This document shows, in pieces, positions 1 through 41,315 of a stretch of 64,000 bases of DNA; positions within the stretch are counted from its first letter, which is position 1, and each line of letters begins with the position of its first letter. A program made the translations under genes and the position numbers. Origin of the DNA: Isurus oxyrinchus. Its lineage: Eukaryota. The notes below the pieces were generated by a model. It saw nothing but the letters and a program-made list of their open reading frames with translations, did not search any database and was not told the DNA's origin. The stretch covers positions 87,358,001 through 87,422,000 of the forward strand of contig JANJGN010000016.1 in assembly GCA_026770705.1 (NCBI GenBank), given 5' to 3'.

Positions 1-3000
1 TCTGTGTACTCAGGTACATAACATTTCAACATCCAGTTTCTGTACTTAGGTACATCACATTTCACAATCCAGTCTGTGTACTCAGGTACATCACCCTTCA
101 CAATCCAGTCTGTGTACTCAGGTACATCACATTTCACAATCCAGTCTGTGTACTCTGGTACATCACACTGCACAATCCTGTCTGTGTACTCAGGTATATC
201 ACACTGCACAATCCAGTCTGTGTACTCAGGTACATCACACTTCACAATCCAGTCTGTGTACTCACGTATATCACACTTCACAATCCAGTCTGTGTTCTAA
301 GGTACATCACACATCACAATCCATTCTGTGTACTCAGGTACATCACACTTCACAATTCAGTCTGTGTACTCAGGTACATCACACTTCACAATCCAGTCTG
401 TGTACTCAGGTACATTACACTTCACAATCCAGTCTGTGTACTCAGGTACATCACACTTCACAATCCATTCTGTGTACTCAGGTACATCACACATCACAAT
501 CCAGTCTGTGTACTCAGGTACATCACACTTCACAATCCAGTCTGTGTACTCATGTACATCACATTTCATAATCCAGTCTCTGTACTCAGGTACATCACCC
601 TTCACAATCCAGTCTGTGTACTCAGGTACATCACAGTTCACAATCCAGTCTGTGTACTCAGGTATATCAAACTGCACAATCCTGTCGGTGGACTCAGGTA
701 TATCACACTGCACAATCCAGTCTGTGTACTCAGGTACATCACACTTCACAATCCAGTCTGTGTACTCACGTACATCACAATTCACATTCCAGTCTGTGTA
801 CTCAGGTACATCACTCTTCACAATCCAGTCTGTGTACTCACGTACATCACACTTCACAATCCAGTCTGTGTACTCAGGTACATCACACTTCACAATCCAG
901 TCTGTGTTCTCAGGTACACCACACAGCACAATCCAGTCTGTGTACTCAGGCACGTCACACTTCACAATCCAGTCTCTGTATTCAGGCACGTCACATTTCA
1001 CAATCCAGTCTGTGTACTCAGGTACATCACACTTCACAATCCAGTCTGTGTACTCAGGTATATCACACTGCACAATCCAGTCTGTGTACTCAGGTATATC
1101 ACACTTCACAATCCAGTCTGTGTACTCAGGTACATCACATTTCACAATTCAGTCTGTGTACTCAGGTATATCACACTTCACAATCCAGTCAGTATACTCA
1201 GGTACATCACACTTCACAATCCAGTCTGTGTTCTCAGGAACATCATACTTCACAATCCAGTATGTGTACTCAGGCACGTCACACTTCACAATCCAGTATG
1301 TGTACTCACGTACATCACACTTCACAATCCAGTCTGTGTTCTAAGGTACATCACACATCACAATCCATTCTGTGTACTCAGGTACATCACACTTCACAAT
1401 TCAGTCTGTGTACTCAGGTATATCACACTGCACAATCCAGTCTGTGTACTCAGGTACATCACATTTCACAATCCAATCTGTGTCCTCAGGTATATCACAC
1501 TTCACAATCCAGTCTGTGTACTCAGGTGCATCACACTTCACAATCATGTCTGTGTACTCAGGTACATCACATTTCATAATCCAGTCTCTGTACTCAGGTA
1601 CATCACATTTCACAATCCAGTCTGTGTACTCAGGTACATCACCCTTCACAATCCAGTCTGTGTACTCAGGTACACCACACTTCACAATCCAGTCTGTGTA
1701 CTCAGGTACATCATACTTCACAATCCAGTCTGTGTACTCAGGCACGTCACACTTCACAATCCAGTCTGTAAACCCAGTTACGTCACACTTCACAATCCAG
1801 TCTGTGTACTCAGGTACGTCACACTTCACAATCCAGTCTAAGTACTCAGGTACATCACACTTCACAATCCAGTCTGTGTACTCAGGTATATCACACTGCA
1901 CAATCCAGTCTGTGTTCTCAGGTATATCACACTACACAATCCAGTCTGTGTACTCAGGTACATCACATTTCACAATCCAGTCTGTGTACTCAGGTTCATC
2001 ACACTTCACAATCCAATCTGTGTACTCAGGTACATCAAACTTCACAATCCAGTCTGTGTACTCAGGTACATCACACTACACAATCCAGTCTGTGTACTCA
2101 GGTACGTCACATTTCATAATCCAGTCTCTGTACTCAGGCACGTCACATTTCACAATCCAGTCTGTGTACTCAGGTACATCACACTTCACAATCCAGTATG
2201 TGTACTCAGGTATATCACACTGCACAATCCAGTCTGTTTACACAGGTACATCACACTTCACAATCCAGTCTGTGTACTCAGGAACATCATGCTTCACAAT
2301 CCAGTCTGTGTACTCAGGTACATCATACTTCATAATCCAGTCTGTGTACTCAGGCACGTCACACTTCACAATCCAGTCTGTGTACTCAGGCACGTCACAC
2401 TTCACAATCCAGTCTGTAAACTCAGGTACGTCACACTTCACAATCCAGTCTGTGTACTCAGGTATATCACACTGCACAATCCATCTGTGTACTCAGGTAT
2501 ATCACACTGCACAATCCAGTATGTGTACTCAGGCACGTCACACTTCACAATCCAGTATGTGTACTCAGTCACGTCACACTTCACAATCCTGTCTGTGTAC
2601 TCACGTACGTCACACTTCAGAATCCAGTCTGTGTACTCAGGTCCATCACACTTCACAATCCAGTCTGTGTACTCAGGTACATCACACTTCACAATCCAGT
2701 CTGTGTACTCAGGTACATCACATTTCACAATCCAGTCTGTGTACTCAGGTACATCACATTTCATAATCCAGTCTGTGTACTCAGGTACATCACACTTCAC
2801 AATCCAGTCTGTGTACTCAGGTACATTACACTTCACAATCCAGTCTGTGTACTCACGTACATCAGACTTCACAATCCTGTCTGTGTACTCAGCTACATCA
2901 CACTGCACAATCCAGTCTGTGTACTCAGGTACATCACACTTCACAATACAGTCTGTGCACTCAGGTACATCACACTTCACAATCCAGTCTCTGTATTCAG

Positions 3001-5020
3001 GCACGTCACATTTCACAATCCAGTCTGTGTACTCAGGTACATCACACTTCACAATCCAGTCTGTGTACTCAGGTATATCACACTGCACAATCCAGTCTGT
3101 GTACTCAGGTATATCACACTTCACAATCCAGTCTGTGTACTCAGGTACATCACATTTCACAATCCAATCTGTGTCCTCAGGTATATCACACTTCACAATC
3201 CAGTCTGTGTACTCAGGTGCATCACACTTCACAATCATGTCTGTGTACTCAGGTACATCACATTTCACAATCCAGTCTGTGTACTCAGGTGCATCACACT
3301 TCACAATCATGTCTGTGTACTCAGGTACATCACATTTCACAATCCAGTCTGTGTACTCACGTACATCACACTTCACAATCCAGTCTGTGTACTCAGGTAC
3401 ATCACACTTCACAATCCAGTCTGTGTTCTCAGGTACACCACACAGCACAATCCAGTCTGTGTACTCAGGCACGTCACACTTCACAATCCAGTCTCTGTAT
3501 TCAGGCACGTCACATTTCACAATCCAGTCTGTGTACTCAGGTACATCACACTTCACAATCCAGTCTGTGTACTCAGGTATATCACACTGCACAATCCAGT
3601 CTGTGTACTCAGGTATATCACACTTCACAATCCAGTCTGTGTACTCAGGTACATCACATTTCACAATCCAGTCTGTGTACTCAGGTATATCACACTTCAC
3701 AATCCAGTCTGTGTACTCAGGTACATCACACTTCACAATCCAGTCTGTGTTCTCAGGTACATCATACTTCACAATCCATTATGTGAACTCAGGCACGTCA
3801 CACTTCACAATCCAGTATGTGTACTCACGTACATCACACTTCACAATCCAGTCTGTGTTCTAAGGTACATCACACATCACAATCCATTCTGTGTACTCAG
3901 GTAAATCACACTTCACAATTCAGTCTGTGTACTCAGGTACATCACACTTCACAATCCATTCTGTGTACTCATGTACATCACACTTCACAATCCAGTCTGT
4001 GTTCTAAGGTACATCACACATCACAATCCATTCTGTGTACTCAGGTACATCACACTTCACAATTCAGTCTGTGTACTCAGGTACATCACACTTCACAATC
4101 CAGTCTGTGTACTCAGGTACATTACACTTCACAATCCAGGCTGTGTACTCAGGTACATCACACTTCACAACCCAGTCTGTGTACTCAGGTACATCACACA
4201 TCACAATCCAGTCTGTGTACTCAGGTACATCACACTTCACAATCCAGTCTGTGTACTCAGGTACATCACATTTCATTATCCAGTCTGTGTACTCAGGTAC
4301 ATCACATTTCATAATCCAGTCTCTGTACTCAGGTACATCACATTTCACAATCCAGTCTGTGTACTCAGGTACATCACCCTTCACAATCCAGTCTGTGTAC
4401 TCAGGTACATCACATTTCACAATCCAGTCTGTGTACTCAGGTACATCACACTGCACAATCCTGTCTGTGTACTCAGGTATATCACACTGCACAATCCAGT
4501 CTGTGTACTCAGGTACATCACACTTCACAATCCAGTCTGTGTACTCACGTACATCACACTTCACAATCCAGTCTGTGTTCTAAGGTACATCACACATCAC
4601 AATCCAGTATGTGTACTCATGTACATCACATTTCATAATCCAGTCTCTGTACTCAGGTACATCACATTTCACAATCCAGTCTGTGTACTCAGGTACATCA
4701 CCCTTCACAATCCAGTCTGTGTACTCAGGTACATCACATTTCACAATCCAGTCTGTGTACTCCGGTATATCACACTTCACAATCCTGTCTGTGTACTCAG
4801 GTATATCACACTGCACAATCCAGTCTGTGTACTCAGGTACATCACACTTCACAATCCTGTCTGTGTACTCACGTACATCACACTTCACAATCCAGTCTGA
4901 GTACTCAGGTACATCACACTTCAGAATCCAGTCTGTGTACTCAGGTACATCACACTTCACAATCCAGTCTGTGTACTCAGGTACATCATACTTCACAATC
5001 CAGTCTGTGTACTCAGGTAC
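1..5020 (+). repeat. 36-bp tandem satellite (TCTGTGTACTCAGGTACATCACACTTCACAATCCAG)n, ~140 copies, runs off the left edge
   Basis: Directly visible 36-bp period; produces the 12-aa repeat ORFs in several frames. Confidence 0.98.
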
Positions 5021-6476
5021 ACCACCGCTGTCCTCACACTGATCTGAAGCTCCAGTTCCGGTTCCTCGAGGGACCAGTGTTTTGTGAGCACCTCATTCGT
5101 GAGTCACACCCCCAAATACTCTGCTCCTGCCTTAGGTGTTGGTGAAAATTGCTACTGGAAGTTTCTGTGTAGACACGGCCTCCTGCTGAGTTCCCGTCTC
5201 ACCCTGCTCGGTGCAATGGACTGGGAACATGTGGTGTACCCTGAGAACTTGCAGCAAATAACAATGTCTTCCCCACATGCAGCATCTCTTCCTGTATCTT
5301 CACCAACTTGAAACAACTCCTCCAAACACCCAGTCCTTCCACAAACTCAATCAGAACCAGGAGAAAGTCAGCAGGAACTCAACTGCAGGTTGTTGATGGT
5401 CCCTTTAAATCTCACTGGTCTCTGGATCCCTCACACTGCTGAACCTGTACCAAATCTGCTTTACAATCTGACTGAGCTCACCATCTGCTGACTCTGTATC
5501 CTTCCGGAACACGCCTGTAACACGTGTGTTAATGCCCCTTCACCACGATGGGGTCCACTGTGGCCCAGACTGGAAGTGGGAAGAAACCTGCAGCCGCCAT
5601 TTTGTTTCCATCGGGTTCCTGTCGTGTCGAAATTCCCGGGGTTATGGAGGCAAAATTTGTGGTCATCGTATTCACTGAACGTATAATCTTGTTTTATAGA
5701 TTTTAAAGTCATTACTTGGTCGGGTTTAGCTGATAGGAGGATTCACTGAACTGTTTCTGGGTAAACTTACCCCTGCCGCTTCTCCTTGTGCGGTGATCGT
5801 CTCTTTGTGATTTTTTTCTCCTGTTCCAGTCGCCTCTCTCAGCAGCTGCTCTGTCACGTTTCAGTTTAAACCCTGAGGGTGTCTCCCATACTCTCCTCTC
5901 TCTCTCTCTCTCTCTCTCGAATATCCGAACCTGTTTATATCCCTTTGCAGTCTCTTTGTATCCTCCTCACAGCTTACTTTCCCAACCAGCTTTTTATTGA
6001 CAGTAGCCCTGACTGTGGGTGGAATTTTCTGTGCCGTGAGTGAACAATATGGCGAGAAGGCCAGAAATAGGCTTCACCACACCTTGAAACCAATTTGCGA
6101 TCGTCCGCTCAGCTGGTCAGTGGCGGGCTGCGTCTCCCACCATCGGACGTTGGGAGCCTCATTGTAACACATCTGCTATCAGAATAAGGCCAGCCCACCG
6201 GAATCATCCCCCCCGCACCCTCCCCTGGGCTGGATCGTCCACCCCCCTTGGCGTGATTGTGAGCTGCCGTCTTTCACAACAGCTTGTGCTTGGCGGGCTG
6301 CTCTCTGAGGGGGACGGGGAGGGGAGTTCCCAGTAACATTGTGCAGCACTCGCCAGGGGGGCCTGTTGGGCTTCAAGGGTGAGGCAGGTTGATGGGGGGT
6401 CAAGGGCGGCCCTGAAGCTGAGGCGACTTTGCAGGAGACAAAGGTTTGCCTCGTGACTGCGGCAGTTTGTGTGGCC

Positions 6477-12889: not shown

Positions 12890-15800
12890 ATACTGCTCCC
12901 TGCTCCCTCCAACACTGCCAGATCGCTACTCTCTCTAACACTGCCAGATTGCTACTCTCTCCAACTCTACCAACTCCCTACACTCTCCAATAATCCCAAC
13001 TCCCTGTTCCCTCGAAAACTACCAACCCAATGCAGTCTCCAATAAAGACAGCTCCATCTCTCCCCAATACCGCCAGCTTCCTGCTCCCTCCATTACTGCC
13101 TGCTTGTTGCTCCCTCTAATACTGCTGACTCCCTAGCCCCTCTAGTAATGTCAGCTTCCTGTTCCTTTTAATACAGCCACTTCCCTGCTCCCTCCAATAT
13201 TGCCAGCTACCTGCTCCCTCAAACACTGCCAGCTCCCTGCTCCCTCCAATACTGCCAGCTCACTGCTCCCTCCAATACTGCCAGATACCTGCTGTCTCCA
13301 ATAATGCCAGCACCTTGCTCCATCCACAATTGCCAGCTCCCTGCTCGCTCCAATATTGCCAGTTGACTTCTCCCTCCTTAACTGCCAGCTCCCTGCTCCC
13401 TCCAATGCTGCCACCAACAAGCTCCCTCCAATACTGCAAGCTCCCTGCTCCCTCCAATACTGCCAGCTTCCCTTCCCTCCAATACTGCCAACTCTCTGCT
13501 CCCTCCAATACTGCCAGCTTCCCTTCCCTCCAATACTGCAAGCTCCCTGCTCCCTCCAATACTGCCAGCTTCCCTTCCCTCCAATACTGCCAACTCTCTG
13601 CTCTCTCCAATACTGCCAGCTTCCCTTCCCTCCAATACTGCCAACTCTCTGCTCCCTCTAATACTGCCAAATCTGACAATTCCAGCTCCCTGCGCACTCC
13701 AATAATGCCAGATTGCTGCTCTCTCCAATTCTGCCAGCTCCCTGCTCCTTCCAATAGTCAATCCCATCTGTTTTTAATTGTACAATATTCAAGAACAACT
13801 CACTCCCTGGAGAGCTCATGTAAATACTGAGCCCCTCCTGGAGCCCAATGTTATGGGAGGGAAACAAAGGAAATTCAGAACGAGTGGTTCGAGAGAGAAA
13901 CTCGGCAGCTTTAATTCAGAGGGGCGTGATCTCACAACATTGTTAGGTGCTGAACACAAAAATACTGCTCCCTGCTCCCTCCAATACTGCCAGATCGCTA
14001 CTCTCTCCAACACTGCCAGATCGCTACTGTCTCCAACTCTACCAGCTCCCTGCACCCTCCAATAATGCCAAATCCCTGTTCCCTCGAAAACTACCAACCC
14101 AATGCAGTCTCCAATAATGACAGCTCCCTGTTCCCTCCAAAAGTACCAGGTCCCTGCACCCTCCAATAATGCCAACTCCCTGTTCCCTCCAAAAGTACCA
14201 GGTCCCTGCACCCTCCAATAATGCCAACTCCCTGTTCCAAAACTACCAGGTTCCTGCACCCTCCAATAATGCCAACTCCCTTTTCCCTCCAACACTACCA
14301 ACCCAATGCAGTCTCCAATAATGACAGCTCCCTGCTCTCCCCAATACCGTCAGCTCCCTGCTCCCTCCACAACTGCCTCCTTACTGCTCCCTCTAATACT
14401 GCCGACGCTCTAGCCACTCCAATACTGACACTTCCCTGCTTACTCCAATACTGCCAGCTCACTGCCCCTCCAATAATGCCAGTTCTGTGCCCCTCCACTA
14501 ATGCCAGCTTCCTACTCCCTCCAATACTGCCAGCTCCCTGACCCTGCAATAATGCCAGTTCCGTGCTCCCTGCAATAATGCCAGTTCCCCACTACCTCCA
14601 ATAGGGCCACCTCCCAGATCTCTCCAATACTGCCAGCTCCTATCTCAATATAATCCTGCCAGCTCCCTGCTCCCTCCAATAATGCCAGCTCCCTGCTCCC
14701 TCCAATATTGCTAGCTCACTGCTCCCTCCAATACTGCCAGCTCCCTCCTCCCTCCAATACTGCCAGCTCCCTGCTCCCTCCAATACTGCCAGCTCGCTGC
14801 TCCCTCCAATATTGCTAGCTCACTGCTCCCTCCAATACTGCCAGCTCCCTGCTCCCTCCAATACTGCCAGCTCGCTGCTCCCTCCAATTCTGCCAACTAC
14901 CTAGTCCCTCCAATACTGCCAGTTCCTTGGATACAACAATAAAGCAAGTTCCTGCTCCCTCCAATGCTGTCAGCTCCCTGCTATCTCCAATAATGCCAGG
15001 ACACAGATCTCTCCAATACTGCCATCGCCCTGCTGTCACCAATACTGCCATCTCCCTGCTCTCACCAAAACTGCTATCTCCCTGCTCTCATCAATACTGG
15101 CATCTCCCTGCTGTCACCAATACTGCCAGCTCCCTGCTCTCTCTAATACTGCCAGCTCCCTGCTCTCAATAATACTGCCAGCTCCCTGCTCTCACCAATA
15201 CTGCCAGCTCCCTGCTCTCTCTAACACTGCCAGCTTCCTGCTCCCTCATACCCTGCCAGCTCCCTGCTCCCTCCAATACTGCCAGCTCCCTGCTCTCTCT
15301 AATATTGCCAGCTCCCTGCTCCCTCATACCCTGCCAGCTCCCTGCTCCCTCCAATATTGCCAGCTCCCTGCTCCCTCATACCCTGCCAGCTCCCTGCTCC
15401 CTCCAATACTGCCATCTCCCTGCTCTCACCAATACTGTCAGCTCCCTGCTCTCTCTAATATTGCCAGCTCCCTGCTCCCTCATACACTGCCAGCTCCATG
15501 CACCCATCAATACGACTGTCTCCCTGTTCCCTCCAATGCTGTCAGCTCCCTGCTACCTCCAATAGTGCCAGGACCAGATCCCTCCAATACTGCCACCACC
15601 CTTCTCTCTCCAATACTGCCAGCTCCCTGCTCTCTCTAATATTGCCAGCTCCCTGCTCCCTCATACCCTGCCAGCTCCCTGCTCCCTCCAATATTGCCAG
15701 CTCCCTGCTCCCTCATACCCTGCCAGCTCCCTGCTCCCTCCAATACTGCCAGCTCCCTGCTGTCACCAATACTGCCAGCTCCCTGCTCTCTCTAATATTG

Positions 15801-18220
15801 CCAGCTCCCTGCTCCCTCATACCCTGCCAGCTCCCTGCTCCCTCCAATATTGCCAGCTCCCTGCTCTCTCTAATATTGCCAGCTCCATGCTCCCTCATAC
15901 CCTGCCAGCTCCCTGCTCCCTCCAATATTGCCAGCTCCCTGCTCCCTCATACCCTGCCAGCTCCCTGCTCCCTCCAATACTGCCATCTCCCTGCTCTCAC
16001 CAATACTGCCAGCTCCCTGCTCCCTCATACACTGCCAGCTCCATGCACCCATCAATACGCCTGTCTCCCTGTTCCCTCCAATACTGTCAGCTCCCTGCGC
16101 ACTCCAATAGTGCCAGGACACAGATCCCTCCAATACTGCCACCACCCTTCTCTCTCCAATACTGCCAGCTCCCTGCTCTCTCTAATATTGCCAGCTCCCT
16201 GCTCCCTCATACCCTGCCAGCTCCCTGCTCCCTCCAATATTGCCAGCTCCCTGCTCCCTCATACCCTGCCAGCTCCCTGCTCCCTCCAATATTGCCAGCT
16301 CCCTGCTCCCTCATACCCTGCCAGCTCCCTGCTCCCTCCAATATTGCCAGCTCCCTGCTCCCTCATACCCTGCCAGCTCCCTGCTCCCTCCAATACTGCC
16401 AGCTCGCTGCTCTCACCAATACTGCCATCTCCCTGCTCCCTCATACCCTGCCAGCTCCCTGGTCCCTCCAATGCTGTCAGCTCCCTGCTATCTCCAATAA
16501 TGCCAGGACACAGATCTCTCCAATACTGCCATCTCCCTGCTGTCACCAATACTGCCATCTCCCTGCTCTCACCAATACTGCCAGCTCCCTGCTCTCTCTA
16601 ATATTGCCAGCTCCCTGCTCCCTCATACACTGCCAGCTCCATGCACCAATCAATACGTCTGTCTCCCTGTTCCCTCCAATGCTGTCAGCTCCCTGCTACC
16701 TCCAATAGTGCCCGGACACAGATCCCTCCAATACTGCCAGCTCCCTGCTGTCTCCAATAATGCCATCTCCCAGCACCCTCCAATACAGCCAGCTGCCTTC
16801 TATCTCCATAACTTCCATCCTCCATCTATGTTCGATGATGCCAGATCCCTGTTCCCTCTGTTACTGCCTGCTCCCTGCTCCCTGCTACCCCCATGGCTGG
16901 CAGCACCCTGCTCCCTGCTTTACTGCCAGATCGCTGCTCTCTCCAATTCTGCCAGCTCCCTGCTCTCTCCAACAAGACCAGCTCCCTGCTCTCTCCAATT
17001 CTGCCAGCTCCCTGCTCTCTCCAACAAGACCAGCTCCCTGCTCTCTCCAATTCTGCCAGCTCCCTGCTCTCTCCAACAAGACCAGCTCCCTGCTCCATCT
17101 ACCACTGCCAGCTCCCTGCTCCCTGCTTTACTGCCAGCTCCCTGCTCCCTGCTTTACTGCCAGCTCCCTGCTTCCTCCAATACTGCCAGCTCCCTGCTTC
17201 CTCCAATACTGCCAGCTCCCTGCTCCCTCCAATACTGCCAGCTCCCTGCTTCCTCCAATACTGCCAGCTCCCTACTCTCTCCAATAATGTCAGCTCCCTG
17301 CTCACTCCAATAATGCCAGCTCCCTGCTCCCTCCAATAATGCCAGCTCCCTGCTCCCTCCAATACTGCCAACTGCCCGCTCCCTCTAATACTGCCACATC
17401 GCTACTCTCTCTGACAATTCTAGCTCCCTTCGCACTCCAATACTGCCAGATCGCTACTCTCTCCAAGAATGCCAGCACCCCGCTCCTTCCAATACTGCCA
17501 TCTCCCTGCTGTTTCCAATACTGCCAGGTCCCTGCTCTCTCCAATAATGCCAGCTCCCTGTTCCCTCAAACACTACCAGCTCCCTGTGGCCTCCAATAAT
17601 GCATGCTCCCCGCTCTTTCCAATACTGTCAGCATCCAGTACCCTCCAATACTGCCATCTCCCTGCTCTCTCGAATACTGTCAGCTCCCAGCTCCCACCAA
17701 TACTGCCAGCTACCTGCTCCCTCTAAACTACCACCTCCCTGCTCCCTCCAGCATCGCCACCTCCCAGCTCCCTCCAACACTGCCATCTCCCTGCTACCTC
17801 CAATAATGCCAGATCGCTACTCTCTCCAATACTGCCAGCTGCTTGCTCTCTCCAATACTGCCAGCACCCTCTAACACTGTCACCTCGCTGCACTGTCCAG
17901 TACTCCCAGATCCTTACTCCCTCTAATACTGCCACCTCGCTGCACTGTCCAAAACTCCCAGATCCTTACTCCCTCTAATACTGTCACCTCCCTGCTCCCT
18001 CTAATACTGCCACCTCCCTGCTTCCCCTAATACTGCCAGCTCCCTGCTCTCTCCAATACGCCCAGATCCTTACTCCCTCAGATCCTGCCAGCTCCCTGCT
18101 CTCTCCAATACTGCCAGCACCCTGCACTCTCCAATACGCCCAGATCCTTACTCCCTCAGATCCTGCCAGCTCCCTTCTGTCTCCAATACTGCCAGCTCCC
18201 TCCTCCCTCCGAAACTGCCC
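12890..18220 (+). repeat. C-rich ~26-bp satellite (CTCCCTCCAATACTGCCAGCTCCCTG)n
   Basis: Directly visible degenerate 26-bp period over ~5 kb. Confidence 0.95.
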
Positions 18221-24690: not shown

Positions 24691-25305
24691 ATCTCTGAAT
24701 AGTATTTAGCATCAGCAACTATACACGTGATCTCTTCTACACGTGATCTCTGAATAGTATTTAGCATCAGCAACTATACACGTGATCTCTTCTACACGTG
24801 ATCTCTGAATAGTATTTAGCATCAGCAACTATACACATGATCTCTTCTACACGTGATCTCTGAATTGTATTTAGCATCAGCAACTATACACGTGATCTCT
24901 TCTACACGTGATCTCTGAATAGTATTCAGCATCAGCAACTATACACGTGATCTCTTCTACACGTGATCTCTGAATTGTATTTAGCATCAGCAACTATACA
25001 CATGATCTCTTCTACATGTGATCTCTGAATATTATTTAGCATCAGCAACTATACACGTGATCTCTTCGGCACGTGATCTCTGAATAGTATTCAGCATCAG
25101 CAACTATACACGTGATCTCTTCTACATGTCATTTCTGAATATTATTTAGCATCAGCTTATTTACACGTGATCTTTTCTACACATGATCTCTGAATAGTAT
25201 TCAGCATCAACTACTTTACATGTGATCTCTTCTACACGTGATCTCTGAATAGAATTTAGCATCAGCTAGTTTTCACGTTATCTCTTCTACACGTGATCTC
25301 TGAAT
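24641..25305 (+). repeat. 55-bp minisatellite, ~12 copies
   Basis: Unit TGAATAGTATTTAGCATCAGCAACTATACACGTGATCTCTTCTACACGTGATCTC. Confidence 0.95.
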
Positions 25306-25705
25306 GATATACCTGAGTACACAGACTGGATTGTGAAGTGTGATGTACCTGAGTACACAGACTGGATTGTGAAATGTGATGTACCTGAGTACACAGACTG
25401 GATTGTGAAGTGTGATGTACCTGAGTACACAGACTGGATTGTGAAATGTGATGTACCTGAGTACACAGACTGGATTGTGAAGTGTGATGTACCTGAGTAC
25501 ACAGACTGGATTGTGAAGTGTGATGTACCTGAGTACACAGACTGGATTGTGAAGTGTGATGTACCTGAGTACACAGACTGGATTGTCAAGTATGATGTAT
25601 CTGAGTACACAGACTGGATTGTGAAGTGTGATGTACTTGAGTACACAGACTGGATTGTGAAGTGTGTTGTACCTGAGTACACAGACTGGACTGTGAAATG
25701 TAACT
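25305..25705 (-). repeat. Inverted copy of the 36-bp satellite, ~11 units
   Basis: Reverse complement of the unit at 1-5020. Confidence 0.97.
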
Positions 25706-35117: not shown

Positions 35118-35214
35118 GAGGAAGTGAAAGGTGCTGACGTGGTTCTCTCTGGGTGATACCATTTACATACTGAGGAACAGCCAGTGAGACTCTGACAGGC
35201 TGCAGCTGTATAAA
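35118..35214 (+). promoter_or_regulatory. Ig V promoter: EICE (35120-35129), TGACGTGG (35135-35142), octamer variant ATTTACAT (35161-35168), E-box CAGCTG (35203-35208), TATAAA (35209-35214)
   Basis: Motifs read directly; octamer-like element upstream of TATA and leader ATG as in Ig light-chain promoters. Confidence 0.8.
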
Positions 35215-35274: not shown

Positions 35275-35323
35275 ATGATTTCAGCCATCCAGCTGATCTG
35301 GCCTCTGGCATTCTGCATCGCAG
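35275..35323 (+). CDS. Ig light-chain leader exon MISAIQLIWPLAFCIA(G)
   Basis: Kozak CACCATG, hydrophobic signal peptide, phase-1 donor G|GTACAA, 186-bp intron to acceptor CCCCTCAG. Confidence 0.93.
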
Positions 35324-35509: not shown

Positions 35510-35804
35510 GTATCAGTGGGGACATCACCATGAAACAGCCTCCCCTGGTGTCAGTGAGCCTGGGCCAGACCGCCACCATCACCTGTACGGCCAGTCAGTC
35601 TGTTAGCAGCTATGTTGCTTGGTACCAGCAGCAAGAAGGACAGAAACCCACTCTCCTGATCTATTCGGCAACAACTCGATTCACAGGAACATCCGAGCGA
35701 TTCACCGGCAGTGGATCTGGCACTCAATTCACCCTGACAATCAGCAATGTACAGAATGAGGATGTCGCTGATTATTACTGTCAGCAGTATAGCAGCTGGC
35801 CCTC
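35510..35804 (+). CDS. IGKV: Ig kappa-type (shark NS4-like) V segment, intact
   Basis: [68 protein letters not shown]; both Cys and the Trp present; followed by 12-RSS. Confidence 0.96.
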
Positions 35805-35832
35805 CACAGTGATACAGAGCCTGACAAAAACC
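35805..35832 (+). other. V recombination signal sequence, 12-bp spacer
   Basis: CACAGTG-ATACAGAGCCTG-ACAAAAACC, consensus heptamer and nonamer. Confidence 0.98.
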
Positions 35833-35834
35833 TC

Positions 35835-37420
35835 AATACACACAGCACCACCTCCTGTACTGACACATCCCACAGTTATATAGAATATATAATAACGGAC
35901 ACACAGTCCCACCTCCTGTACTGACACATCCCACAGTTATATAGAATATATAATAATGGACACACAGTCCCACCTCCTGTACTGATACATCCCACAGTTA
36001 AATAGAATATATAATAATGGATGCAAAGTCCCACCTCCTCTACTGACACATCCCACAGTTAAATAGAATATATAATAATGGACAAACAGTCCCAACTCCT
36101 GTACTGACACATCACACAGTTATATAGAATATATAATAGTGGACACACAGCACCACCTCTTGTACTGACACATCCCACAGTTATAAAGAATATATAATGA
36201 TGGACACATAGTCCCACCTCCTATACTGACATATCCCACAGTTATATATAATATATAATAATGGACATACAGTCCCATCTCCTGTACTGACACATCCCAC
36301 TGTTATATACAATATATAATAATGGACACACAGTCCCAACTTCTGTATTGACACATCCCACAGTTATATAGAATATATAATAATGGACACACAGCACCAC
36401 CTCCTGTACTGACACATCCCACAGTTATATAGAATATATAATAATGGACACACTCCCACCTCCTGTACTGACACATCCCACAGTTAAATAGAATATATAA
36501 TAATGGACACGCAGTACCAACTCCTGTACTGACACACCCCACAGTTATATAGAATATAAAATAATGGACACACAGTCCTACCTCCTGAACTGACACATCC
36601 CACAGTTATATAGAATATATAATAATGGACACACAGTCCCAACTCCTGTACTGACACATCCCACAGTTATATAGAATATATAATAATGGACATACAGTCC
36701 CACCTCCTGTACTGACACAACTCACAGTTATATAGAATATATAATAATGGACGCACAGTCCCACCACCTGTACTGACACATCCCACAGTTAAATAGAATA
36801 TATAATAATGGACGCAAAGTCCCACCTCCTGTACTGACACATCCCACAGTTAAATAGAATATATAATAATGGACACACAGTCCCAACTCCTGTACTGACA
36901 CATCCCACAGTTATATATAATATATAATAGTGGACACACAGCACCACCTCTTGTACTGACACATCCCACAGTTATAAAGAATATATAATAATGGACACAT
37001 AGTCCCACCTCCTATACTGACATATCCCACAGTTATATATAATATATAATAGTGGACATACAGTCCCATCTCCTGTACTGACATATCCCACTGTTATATA
37101 GAATATATAATAATGGACACACAGTCCCAACTCCTGTATTGACACATCCCACAGTTATATAGAATATATAATAATGGACACACAGCACCACCTCCTGTAC
37201 TGACACATCCCACAGTTATATAGAATATATAATAATGGACACACTCCCACCTCCTGTACTGACACATCCAACAGTTAAATAGAATATATAATAATGGACA
37301 CGCAGTACCAACTCCTGTACTGACACACCCCACAGTTATATAGAATATAAAATAATGGACACACAGTCCCACCTCCTGTACTGACACATTACACAGTTAT
37401 ATAGAATATATAATAATGGT
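35835..37420 (+). repeat. 61-bp minisatellite, ~26 copies, in the V-J interval
   Basis: Unit ACACACAGTCCCACCTCCTGTACTGACACATCCCACAGTTATATAGAATATATAATAATGG; 791-bp (13-unit) higher-order duplication. Confidence 0.97.
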
Positions 37421-37539
37421 CACTTTACCTCTTACCCTCCATGTCCACATATGAAGAGCAGCTGAAAGATTTATCATATAAAATTGGGATTCTCAGTTCT
37501 CCCAACAAAAAAAAGACATTGAGAGGAAGAGAGAGGGAA

Positions 37540-37990
37540 AGAGAGAGTGTTAAAGGTGAGTGTGAGTGAGAGACAGAGAGAGGGTGAGAGTGAGTTAAAG
37601 GTGAGTGTGAGTGAGAGACAAAGAGAGGGTGAGAGTGAGTTAAAGGTGAGTGTGAGTGAGAGACAGAGGGTGAGAGTGAGTTAAAGGTGAGTGTGAGTGA
37701 GAGACAGAGAGAGGGTGAGAGTGAGTTAAACGTGAGTGTGAGTGACAGACAGAGAGAGGGTGAGAGTGAGTTAAAGGTGAGTGTGAGTGAGAGACAGAGA
37801 GAGGGTGAGAGTGAGTTAAAGGTGAGTGTGAGTGAGAGACAGAGAGAGGGTGAGAGTGAGTTAAAGGTGAGTGTGAGTGAGAGACAGAGAGAGGGTGAGA
37901 GTGAGTTAAAGGTGAGTGTGAGTGAGAGACAGAGGGTGAGAGTGAGTTAAAGGTGAGTGTGAGTGAGAGACAGAGAGAGGGTGAGAGTGA
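37540..37990 (+). repeat. 45-bp minisatellite, ~10 copies, just 5' of the J RSS
   Basis: Unit GAGTGAGTTAAAGGTGAGTGTGAGTGAGAGACAGAGAGAGGGTGA. Confidence 0.95.
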
Positions 37991-38011: not shown

Positions 38012-38050
38012 GGTTTTTGTACAGCCCCTGCACTGGAAGCTCTCAGTGTG
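38012..38050 (+). other. J recombination signal sequence, 23-bp spacer
   Basis: GGTTTTTGT + 23 nt + CAGTGTG (one mismatch to CACTGTG; the essential terminal GTG is kept). Confidence 0.96.
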
Positions 38051-38085
38051 GGTTACGTTCGGTAAAGGAACCAAACTCAGACTGA
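38051..38085 (+). CDS. IGKJ: Ig light-chain J segment VTFGKGTKLRL(S)
   Basis: FGXG motif after the 23-RSS; phase-1 donor A|GTAAGT. Confidence 0.96.
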
Positions 38086-40986: not shown

Positions 40987-41315
40987 GCAGAGAGAAGTCA
41001 CCACCCACAGTGACCCTGCTGCCCCCCTCCCCAGAGGAGGTCAAGACCAAGGGCACTGCCACCCTGGTGTGCCTTGCCAATCACTTCTATCCCGATGAGG
41101 TGAAGGTGGAGTGGAAGAAGGACGGTGCAGCCATTTCGGACGGGGTTCAGACCAGCAACTACCTGCGAGCTTCAGACAGCACCTACAGCGTCAGCAGCCT
41201 GCTGACCCTCTCTGGCTCCGGCTGGGAGTCCAACGCCAGCTTCTCCTGTGTCGTCACCCACGAGAGTCTTTCCTCTCCCCTCAGCAAGAGCATCAGGAGA
41301 TCAGAATGTGCGTAG
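40987..41315 (+). CDS. IGKC: Ig kappa-type light-chain constant exon, intact
   Basis: Acceptor TTTCAG; (S)REKSPPTVTLLPPS..ATLVCLANHFYP..WKKDG..YSVSSLLTL..FSCVVTH..RSECA*; in frame with the J donor; penultimate Cys for the H-L disulfide. Confidence 0.96.

Follow-up and report, generated by a model that had tools for sequence, protein, structure and literature searches.

A 61-bp minisatellite between V and J of shark kappa-type light-chain clusters and its possible origin from a recombination signal sequence

The window, a stretch of 64,000 nucleotides of Isurus oxyrinchus DNA, contains an intact light-chain cluster with leader, V, 12-RSS, 23-RSS, J and C, and a tandem array lies between the two signals. 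The features are as follows.

35161 to 35168, plus strand: octamer-like word ATTTACAT, candidate promoter element
35275 to 35323, plus strand: leader exon, from the sequence and from public contigs aligned to the paralogue L052, in which the intron is spliced
35510 to 35804, plus strand: kappa-type V exon, frame open
35805 to 35832, plus strand: V 12-RSS, heptamer and nonamer both consensus
35833 to 35837, plus strand: 5-nt link from nonamer to array, identical in 24 of 25 clusters
35838 to 37423, plus strand: 61-bp minisatellite of 26 units
35871 to 35897, plus strand: RSS-like half of the first unit (CACAGTT, 11-nt spacer, 6/9 nonamer), the best 12-type site of the array
37420 to 37519, plus strand: unique tail in its short (deleted) form, common to 21 of 25 clusters
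37520 to 37990, plus strand: second, unrelated array of 45-bp GA/GT-rich units, 2 to 35 copies across clusters
38012 to 38050, minus strand: J 23-RSS with heptamer CACACTG and consensus nonamer
38051 to 38085, plus strand: J segment (FGKGTKL), spliced to C in public contigs
40987 to 41315, plus strand: constant exon, frame open

The octamer-like word differs from the immunoglobulin octamer by a single mismatch. In the spliced contigs aligned to L052 the leader intron measures 186 nt and has GT..AG ends. A perfect 12-RSS occurs once in the window, at 35805-35832, with none expected from 100 shuffles. The layout of a kappa-type (NS4/type III) cluster was found, namely V with a 12-RSS, J with a 23-RSS, a single C and repetition of the cluster, and the best solved-structure matches are mammalian light chains, several of them named kappa. 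Based on the cluster layout and the 186-bp leader intron, as in NS4, we infer that the locus is of the shark kappa type. Nurse shark NS4 and horned shark type III are described as split kappa-type V-J-C light-chain clusters, and they resemble the clusters analysed here in their V-J-C organisation, in their split, RSS-flanked V and J and in the length of the leader intron (PMC2193156, excerpt). The J heptamer CACACTG is non-consensus (window 38044-38050; 24 of 25 clusters), yet the clusters rearrange. Large satellites with units of 36, 26 and about 24 bp surround the cluster (window 1-5025, 12895-18219 and 43320-64000), and the 36-bp unit is found again, inverted, at 25305-25701.

The array at 35838-37423 consists of 26.1 head-to-tail copies of 61 bp with 90% matches, as befits a minisatellite or VNTR, and it begins 5 nt after the V nonamer, confirming the observation of the first-pass annotation that it starts directly behind the signal. 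The same annotation had placed the RSS roughly in register as the first monomer; the heptamers at 35805 and 35871 and the steps of about 61 bp were described correctly (from 35871 onwards the heptamer-like words are spaced by 61 bp in 23 of 25 intervals and by 59 in two), but the RSS lies 66 nt, not 61, ahead of 35871. Its estimate of two CACAGT words per unit, or about 50 sites, was an overcount, as 35833-37423 contains 32 CACAGT (23 CACAGTT and 9 CACAGTC) and 37 CACAG, and CACAGTG does not occur in this interval. The 23 CACAGTT words, each matching 6/7 positions, do give the array near-consensus heptamers of the 12-RSS type. The proposed alignment of RSS and monomer (6/7, 7/11 with one gap, 6/9) holds for the first unit, but the usual unit reaches only 5/9 when the spacer is 11 nt and 2-4/9 when it is 12. 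The occurrence of ACACACAG after both the RSS and the first monomer, also offered as evidence, is not an independent match, since the array simply starts with ACACACAG. A 791-bp block has recently been duplicated inside the array (identity of 96.7% at offset 791 vs 86.3% at 61), which we take as a mark of unequal exchange. The V frame remains open through the RSS up to the first unit heptamer, over exactly 66 nt or 22 codons (window 35805-35870, 25 clusters), an arrangement that counts as one observation because the 25 clusters are nearly identical; a joint at this heptamer could yield a light chain with a CDR3 longer by 22 residues.

Close copies of V number 25 in DNA and protein searches, and each of them lies on contig C16, at 85.79-88.47 Mb. 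In all 25 fetched clusters the array is found at the same place with 1-68 units (median 13, 414 in total), a variation in copy number measured among 25 paralogues of one assembly. The V frame is open in 25/25, the V heptamer is consensus in 24/25 and J carries FGxG in 24/25, V, RSS and J being intact whatever the size of the array. The two VNTRs bring the kappa V-J intervals to as much as 6003 bp, with an RSS-to-RSS range of 486-6003 bp across clusters, in contrast to about 500 bp (502-524) in most NS4 clones, and in the excerpted account of NS4 the word 'repeat' is absent (PMC2193156). Given this uniform interval of about 500 bp in most nurse shark NS4 clones, the expansion of the array is probably lineage-specific. 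Public contigs from a related species have the same RSS-to-unit junction, the same tandem joints and the same short tail as found here. A genome-wide search for the monomer, proposed earlier as a check, was performed with a 27-nt unit word and gave 213 exact matches, 213/213 falling in 27 places on one contig, which are the 25 clusters, an orphan array beside the locus and a 1.5-unit insert. As every exact match lies in a kappa cluster or in one of these two captured fragments, the unit is locus-specific and a dispersed satellite is ruled out, with the proviso that strongly diverged copies would escape such a search. The idea that the one-unit cluster L052 represents the ancestral state found no support, since its tail is of the short, young kind and multi-unit clusters surround it. 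Phylogenetic trees of the 25 clusters have few well-supported branches (2 and 3 of 22) and place a 2-unit cluster, with weak support, as sister of a 13-unit cluster.

We then compared the unit with the RSS itself. Shuffled controls, which the first-pass annotation had named as the measure of its alignment, gave a marginal result for the bulk unit (P = 0.033, 5000 dinucleotide shuffles) and a stronger one for the old terminal units (P 0.003-0.04). For the bulk unit, P was 0.12-0.30 with the shared hexamer set aside, 70 of 4480 random genomic windows equalled the RSS-unit score, and 14 of 145 CACAGT-seeded background sites matched the likeness of the bulk unit after the seed. The terminal units stem from three clusters with a long tail (L032, L042 and L057, two of which are the outermost of the locus), the short tail lacking about 85 bp that these three have. 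The long tails are only 76-78% identical to one another, as compared to 86-98% among six short-tail clusters, indicating that the long-tail clusters are older. Over the 32 positions of the RSS and the four bases that follow it, their last half-units agree at 23, 22 and 22, with shuffle P values of 0.003, 0.037 and 0.030 and with 1, 38 and 4 of 6040 genomic windows as good; no CACAGT-seeded background site was as good (0/145). These tests are post hoc, and the three tails share ancestry and so do not represent three independent tests. A better match to the RSS in old terminal units is what descent from an RSS would predict. Other natural 12-RSSs of this genome equal or surpass the kappa RSS in their fit to the terminal units (34 vs 28 for L042, 37 vs 31 for L057), and the TCR-type unit described below fits about equally, so that some of the match is accounted for by a high A content and by the general conservation of RSSs. 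Carrying the homology on into the 3' end of V gave 13/27 (P 0.01-0.08; whole-unit P 0.009-0.83), and a duplication spanning the V 3' end was set aside as weak. No likeness to the second half of the unit was detected after the last copy in the long tails. A particular variant occupies 24 of 25 first units and 53 of 389 inner units.

A precedent for RSS amplification was found elsewhere in this genome. A natural RSS was present at 21 of the 40 V loci collected, and two TCR-delta-type V segments were followed by arrays of 60-62 bp in which the unit is an intact 23-RSS. A two-unit query produced 118 candidates, of which 40 were scored and 20 fetched for their high score, a choice biased towards arrays; all 20 of these TCR-delta-type loci contain 2-10 detected RSS copies in steps of 50-64 bp, mostly 62. 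The array loci are L134:68-503, L136 and L139-L158, located on C26 at 23-39 Mb, on C140 and on other small contigs. Among the 71 extra copies, 42 combine a 7/7 heptamer with a nonamer of at least 8/9, and 23 are perfect. The last 95 V codons are free of stops in 10 of the 20 loci, no V end precedes the first detected copy in 4, and 9 have further RSSs at a distance of 3.3-4.9 kb upstream. Of the 16 loci with a V end, 15 show a stop as soon as the V frame runs into the RSS, so that joining at a later copy would not be productive and would retain the first RSS. The open V frames feature a CDR1 cysteine in the motif CEYSG(F/I/L)CQY, and such a cysteine has been described for the V-delta that supports NAR-TCR (PMC1845163, excerpt). 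Signal columns of the intact copies vary by 5.2% vs 9.8%, in a comparison with ungapped columns for which 25 of 71 rows had been removed or merged; we do not read this as selection, as the copies had been chosen by their heptamer and nonamer match.

Similar to the kappa array, the TCR-delta-type arrays start at or just behind the V RSS, run on the same strand, have a period of about 61 bp and vary in copy number; they differ in that their copies keep heptamer, 23-nt spacer and nonamer, which the kappa units do not. Such runs of intact 23-RSSs show simple tandem duplication to be a route by which RSSs can increase in number, and they render the question of which copy RAG uses directly testable, and we consider these undecayed arrays the more striking object of the two. 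Our literature search found no description of RSS-seeded arrays; the main papers on the shark NAR-TCR/TCR-delta locus lay outside its coverage and may describe the TCR-side arrays. Because tandem amplification of RSSs at this period occurs here, an RSS origin of the kappa array rises in our estimate to a likely one, whichever RSS was the donor. The TCR-type unit is a second possible donor, its fit to the kappa ends being similar to that of the kappa RSS. The long-tail ends match the 60-bp TCR-type unit on both sides of the heptamer (P 0.001-0.049), that unit having been picked by eye after the match was seen, and they match the commoner 62-bp unit less well (P 0.02-0.19). The claim that the array came from the V RSS gains moderate support as to an RSS source from the confinement to the locus, the RSS-like old ends and the TCR-side example, but not as to the cluster's own V 12-RSS, which would be favoured as donor by its position without being fixed as such, a 23-RSS being the other candidate.

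To explore whether the units could act as signals, we applied RSS filters to all 25 arrays. None of the 414 units passes a 12-RSS filter (at most 4 mismatches, 12- or 13-nt spacer), with 19 doing so at 11 nt, and none of the 2005 CAC sites has a nonamer of at least 7/9 at 12±1 nt, so that the units would be poor partners for the J 23-RSS. A loose 23-RSS filter (CAC and at most 4 mismatches, 23 nt) passes 229 of 414 units and 10 of 26 in the window, the limit of 4 mismatches being that of the cryptic-RSS filter in PMC11153149 (excerpt). At most 3 mismatches at exactly 23 nt are found in 29 of 414 units, with a background of 0.013 per kb. All 108 CAC sites score below the weakest of 20 natural RSSs (at most 7.8 bits, against 17.1), and the best 23-type unit scores 7.0 against the same 17.1 bits, the natural set having been pre-selected for at least 12/16 or being kappa's own. 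Were RAG to recognise the array, the motifs suggest that it would encounter 23-type sites oriented like V, which would pair with the V RSS and not with J. Ordinary V-J junctions account for every loose end listed in public contigs, four 5' ends at J (from 3 samples) and four at the V end, and no J-to-array joint is among the listed contig ends, these contigs being majority paths from which rare joints are dropped. Matched by eye, the junction contigs correspond to V types with 15, 68, 21 or 44, 20 or 12, and 12 units, the contigs coming from other individuals and the unit numbers from this assembly; that they represent RNA is a guess, though they are spliced. Being majority paths of other individuals without rare joints, they argue against strong suppression only.

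In order to rationalise these observations, we favour, with slightly more belief than doubt, a 61-bp VNTR that goes back to an old, short tandem duplication with an RSS inside it, has since decayed and is now probably a neutral passenger deleted by V-J joining. A duplication of about 60 bp, comprising RSS and flank, would have seeded the unit, an event whose undecayed counterpart is found behind TCR-delta-type V segments; the array would then have spread and changed in size through unequal exchange and gene conversion, selection holding the true RSS while the copies drifted. V-J joining would remove the array, and any cutting by RAG at its convergent CAC sites would be cryptic and of very low frequency. 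The neutrality of the array, taken by itself, appears probable to us, even against the retention of at least one unit in 25/25 clusters, the identical junction in a related species and the 229 units that pass the 23-RSS filter. An ordinary minisatellite, equally neutral, could have grown from 61 bp of flank behind the RSS, with the RSS likeness a chance product of A/C-rich sequence and the common word CACAG. Such an origin would account for unit boundaries that leave out the true RSS, for the existence of a one-unit cluster, for the marginal bulk P of 0.03 with its 14 equal background sites, for the equal fit of unrelated RSSs and for the setting, as the window is full of unrelated minisatellites, one of them in the same V-J interval. 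We nevertheless find it rather unlikely, since the older terminal units are nearer to the RSS with a match that runs past the nonamer, the array lies on the same strand within 66 nt of the RSS, and this genome contains arrays seeded by an RSS whose period is almost identical.

Improbable in our view is a decayed 23-RSS repeat related to the TCR-delta-type arrays and brought in by ectopic repair between RSSs. The first 16 bases shared by kappa and TCR-type RSSs, the periods of 61 vs 60-62 bp, the units that fit at 23 nt (229 and 29 of 414 at the two thresholds) with none at 12 and the match of the long-tail ends to the 60-bp TCR-type unit are consistent with it, but that unit was a post hoc choice and the commoner one fits worse, the donor lies on another chromosome, nonamer positions 6-7 are lost and the bit scores are far below those of natural RSSs. 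Units of this type, if active, would take the V 12-RSS as their partner, flip the segment next to V and act as rivals of J, the opposite of the geometry of a decoy. The decoy itself, a field of 12-RSSs that would occupy the J 23-RSS and so set how much each cluster yields, was proposed in the first-pass annotation and seems to us very improbable. On the J-convergent strand of the array CAC reaches 68 vs 16.8 per kb in the background and CACAG 23 vs 1.3 per kb, the CACAGTT sites rank in the top 2.5-5% of background CAC sites, mouse RAG joins convergent CAC sites at a very low level (PMC11153149, excerpt) and repeats can be cut (PMC2193808, excerpt). All of this would suit a decoy, but the nonamer at 12 spacing is absent in 414 units, a perfect V RSS lies 0.5-6 kb away, the heptamer shows no extra conservation (3.1% variation vs 2.8% in the next 21 columns), the neighbouring 45-bp array varies just as freely, clusters are intact at anything from 1 to 68 units, and J joins V types with long arrays. 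There is also the more far-reaching proposal that in this shark lineage RSSs are minisatellite seeds, with TCR-side copies usable by RAG and the kappa array a 23-type cryptic field whose length is a heritable dial of usage, to which we give little credence. Joints made at TCR-side copies would then contain a stop and keep the V's own RSS available for another try, and a kappa array of 1-68 units would compete with J for the V signal.

Two known systems bear on the favoured passenger array. The gamma-satellite of mouse is likewise a tandem repeat with heptamer-like words best read as cryptic RSSs of the 23 type; it makes up about 6% of the genome, its cleavage has been shown, and it was proposed as a possible harmless sink for RAG breaks (PMC2193808, excerpt). 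The shark array differs in being confined to one receptor locus, in abutting a true RSS and possibly descending from one, and in being known from its sequence alone. Off-targets of RAG scanning, too, are CAC words convergent with a J RSS inside the V-J interval, the very low-level joins in question occurring in megabase mouse loci whereas the present sites lie in shark miniclusters (PMC11153149, excerpt). Low-level RAG cutting of the array is likely.

Sharks possess many near-identical receptor clusters, which raises the question of how one of them is chosen. To our knowledge, convergent CAC off-targets have not been found to be amplified or to regulate usage. The 25 clusters have a near-identical V promoter, RSS and J, and span a 68-fold range in cryptic sites and a 12-fold range in V-J distance, forming a natural series for the effect of distance or cryptic signals on the choice made by RAG. 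A neutral array would mean that kilobases of convergent CAC sites are no obstacle to V-J joining.

The 45-bp array ends about 20 bp ahead of the J nonamer, and its copy number is uncorrelated with that of the 61-bp array (rho 0.22, P 0.30). Its derivation from the J RSS is ruled out (P 0.89, 0 sites passing the filter). The orphan array (C16:85.714-85.717 Mb, L031) starts in mid-unit and comprises about 16 units with no V, J or tail; it forms a pair of arrays 75 kb outside the locus, split by an element of about 1.1 kb with inverted ends. The 1.5-unit insert lies in a dispersed repeat (C16:52.63 Mb, L051:4870-4985) and begins at a heptamer-like word. Judged against 9 empty sites (19 fetched, 10 of them with no probe match), it displays 4 nt of microhomology, AT-rich filler and a small deletion but lacks a target duplication; templated repair is likelier than a RAG signal-end insertion, the 5' end not separating the two. 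All 25 clusters are split and none is germline-joined. In the outermost cluster, L032, J reads FTKG instead of FGKG and has the heptamer CACAATG, making this J possibly non-functional. Among the 25 V exons the frameworks are nearly identical and the CDR3 codons form a patchwork of a few shared triplets, a pattern that suggests gene conversion.
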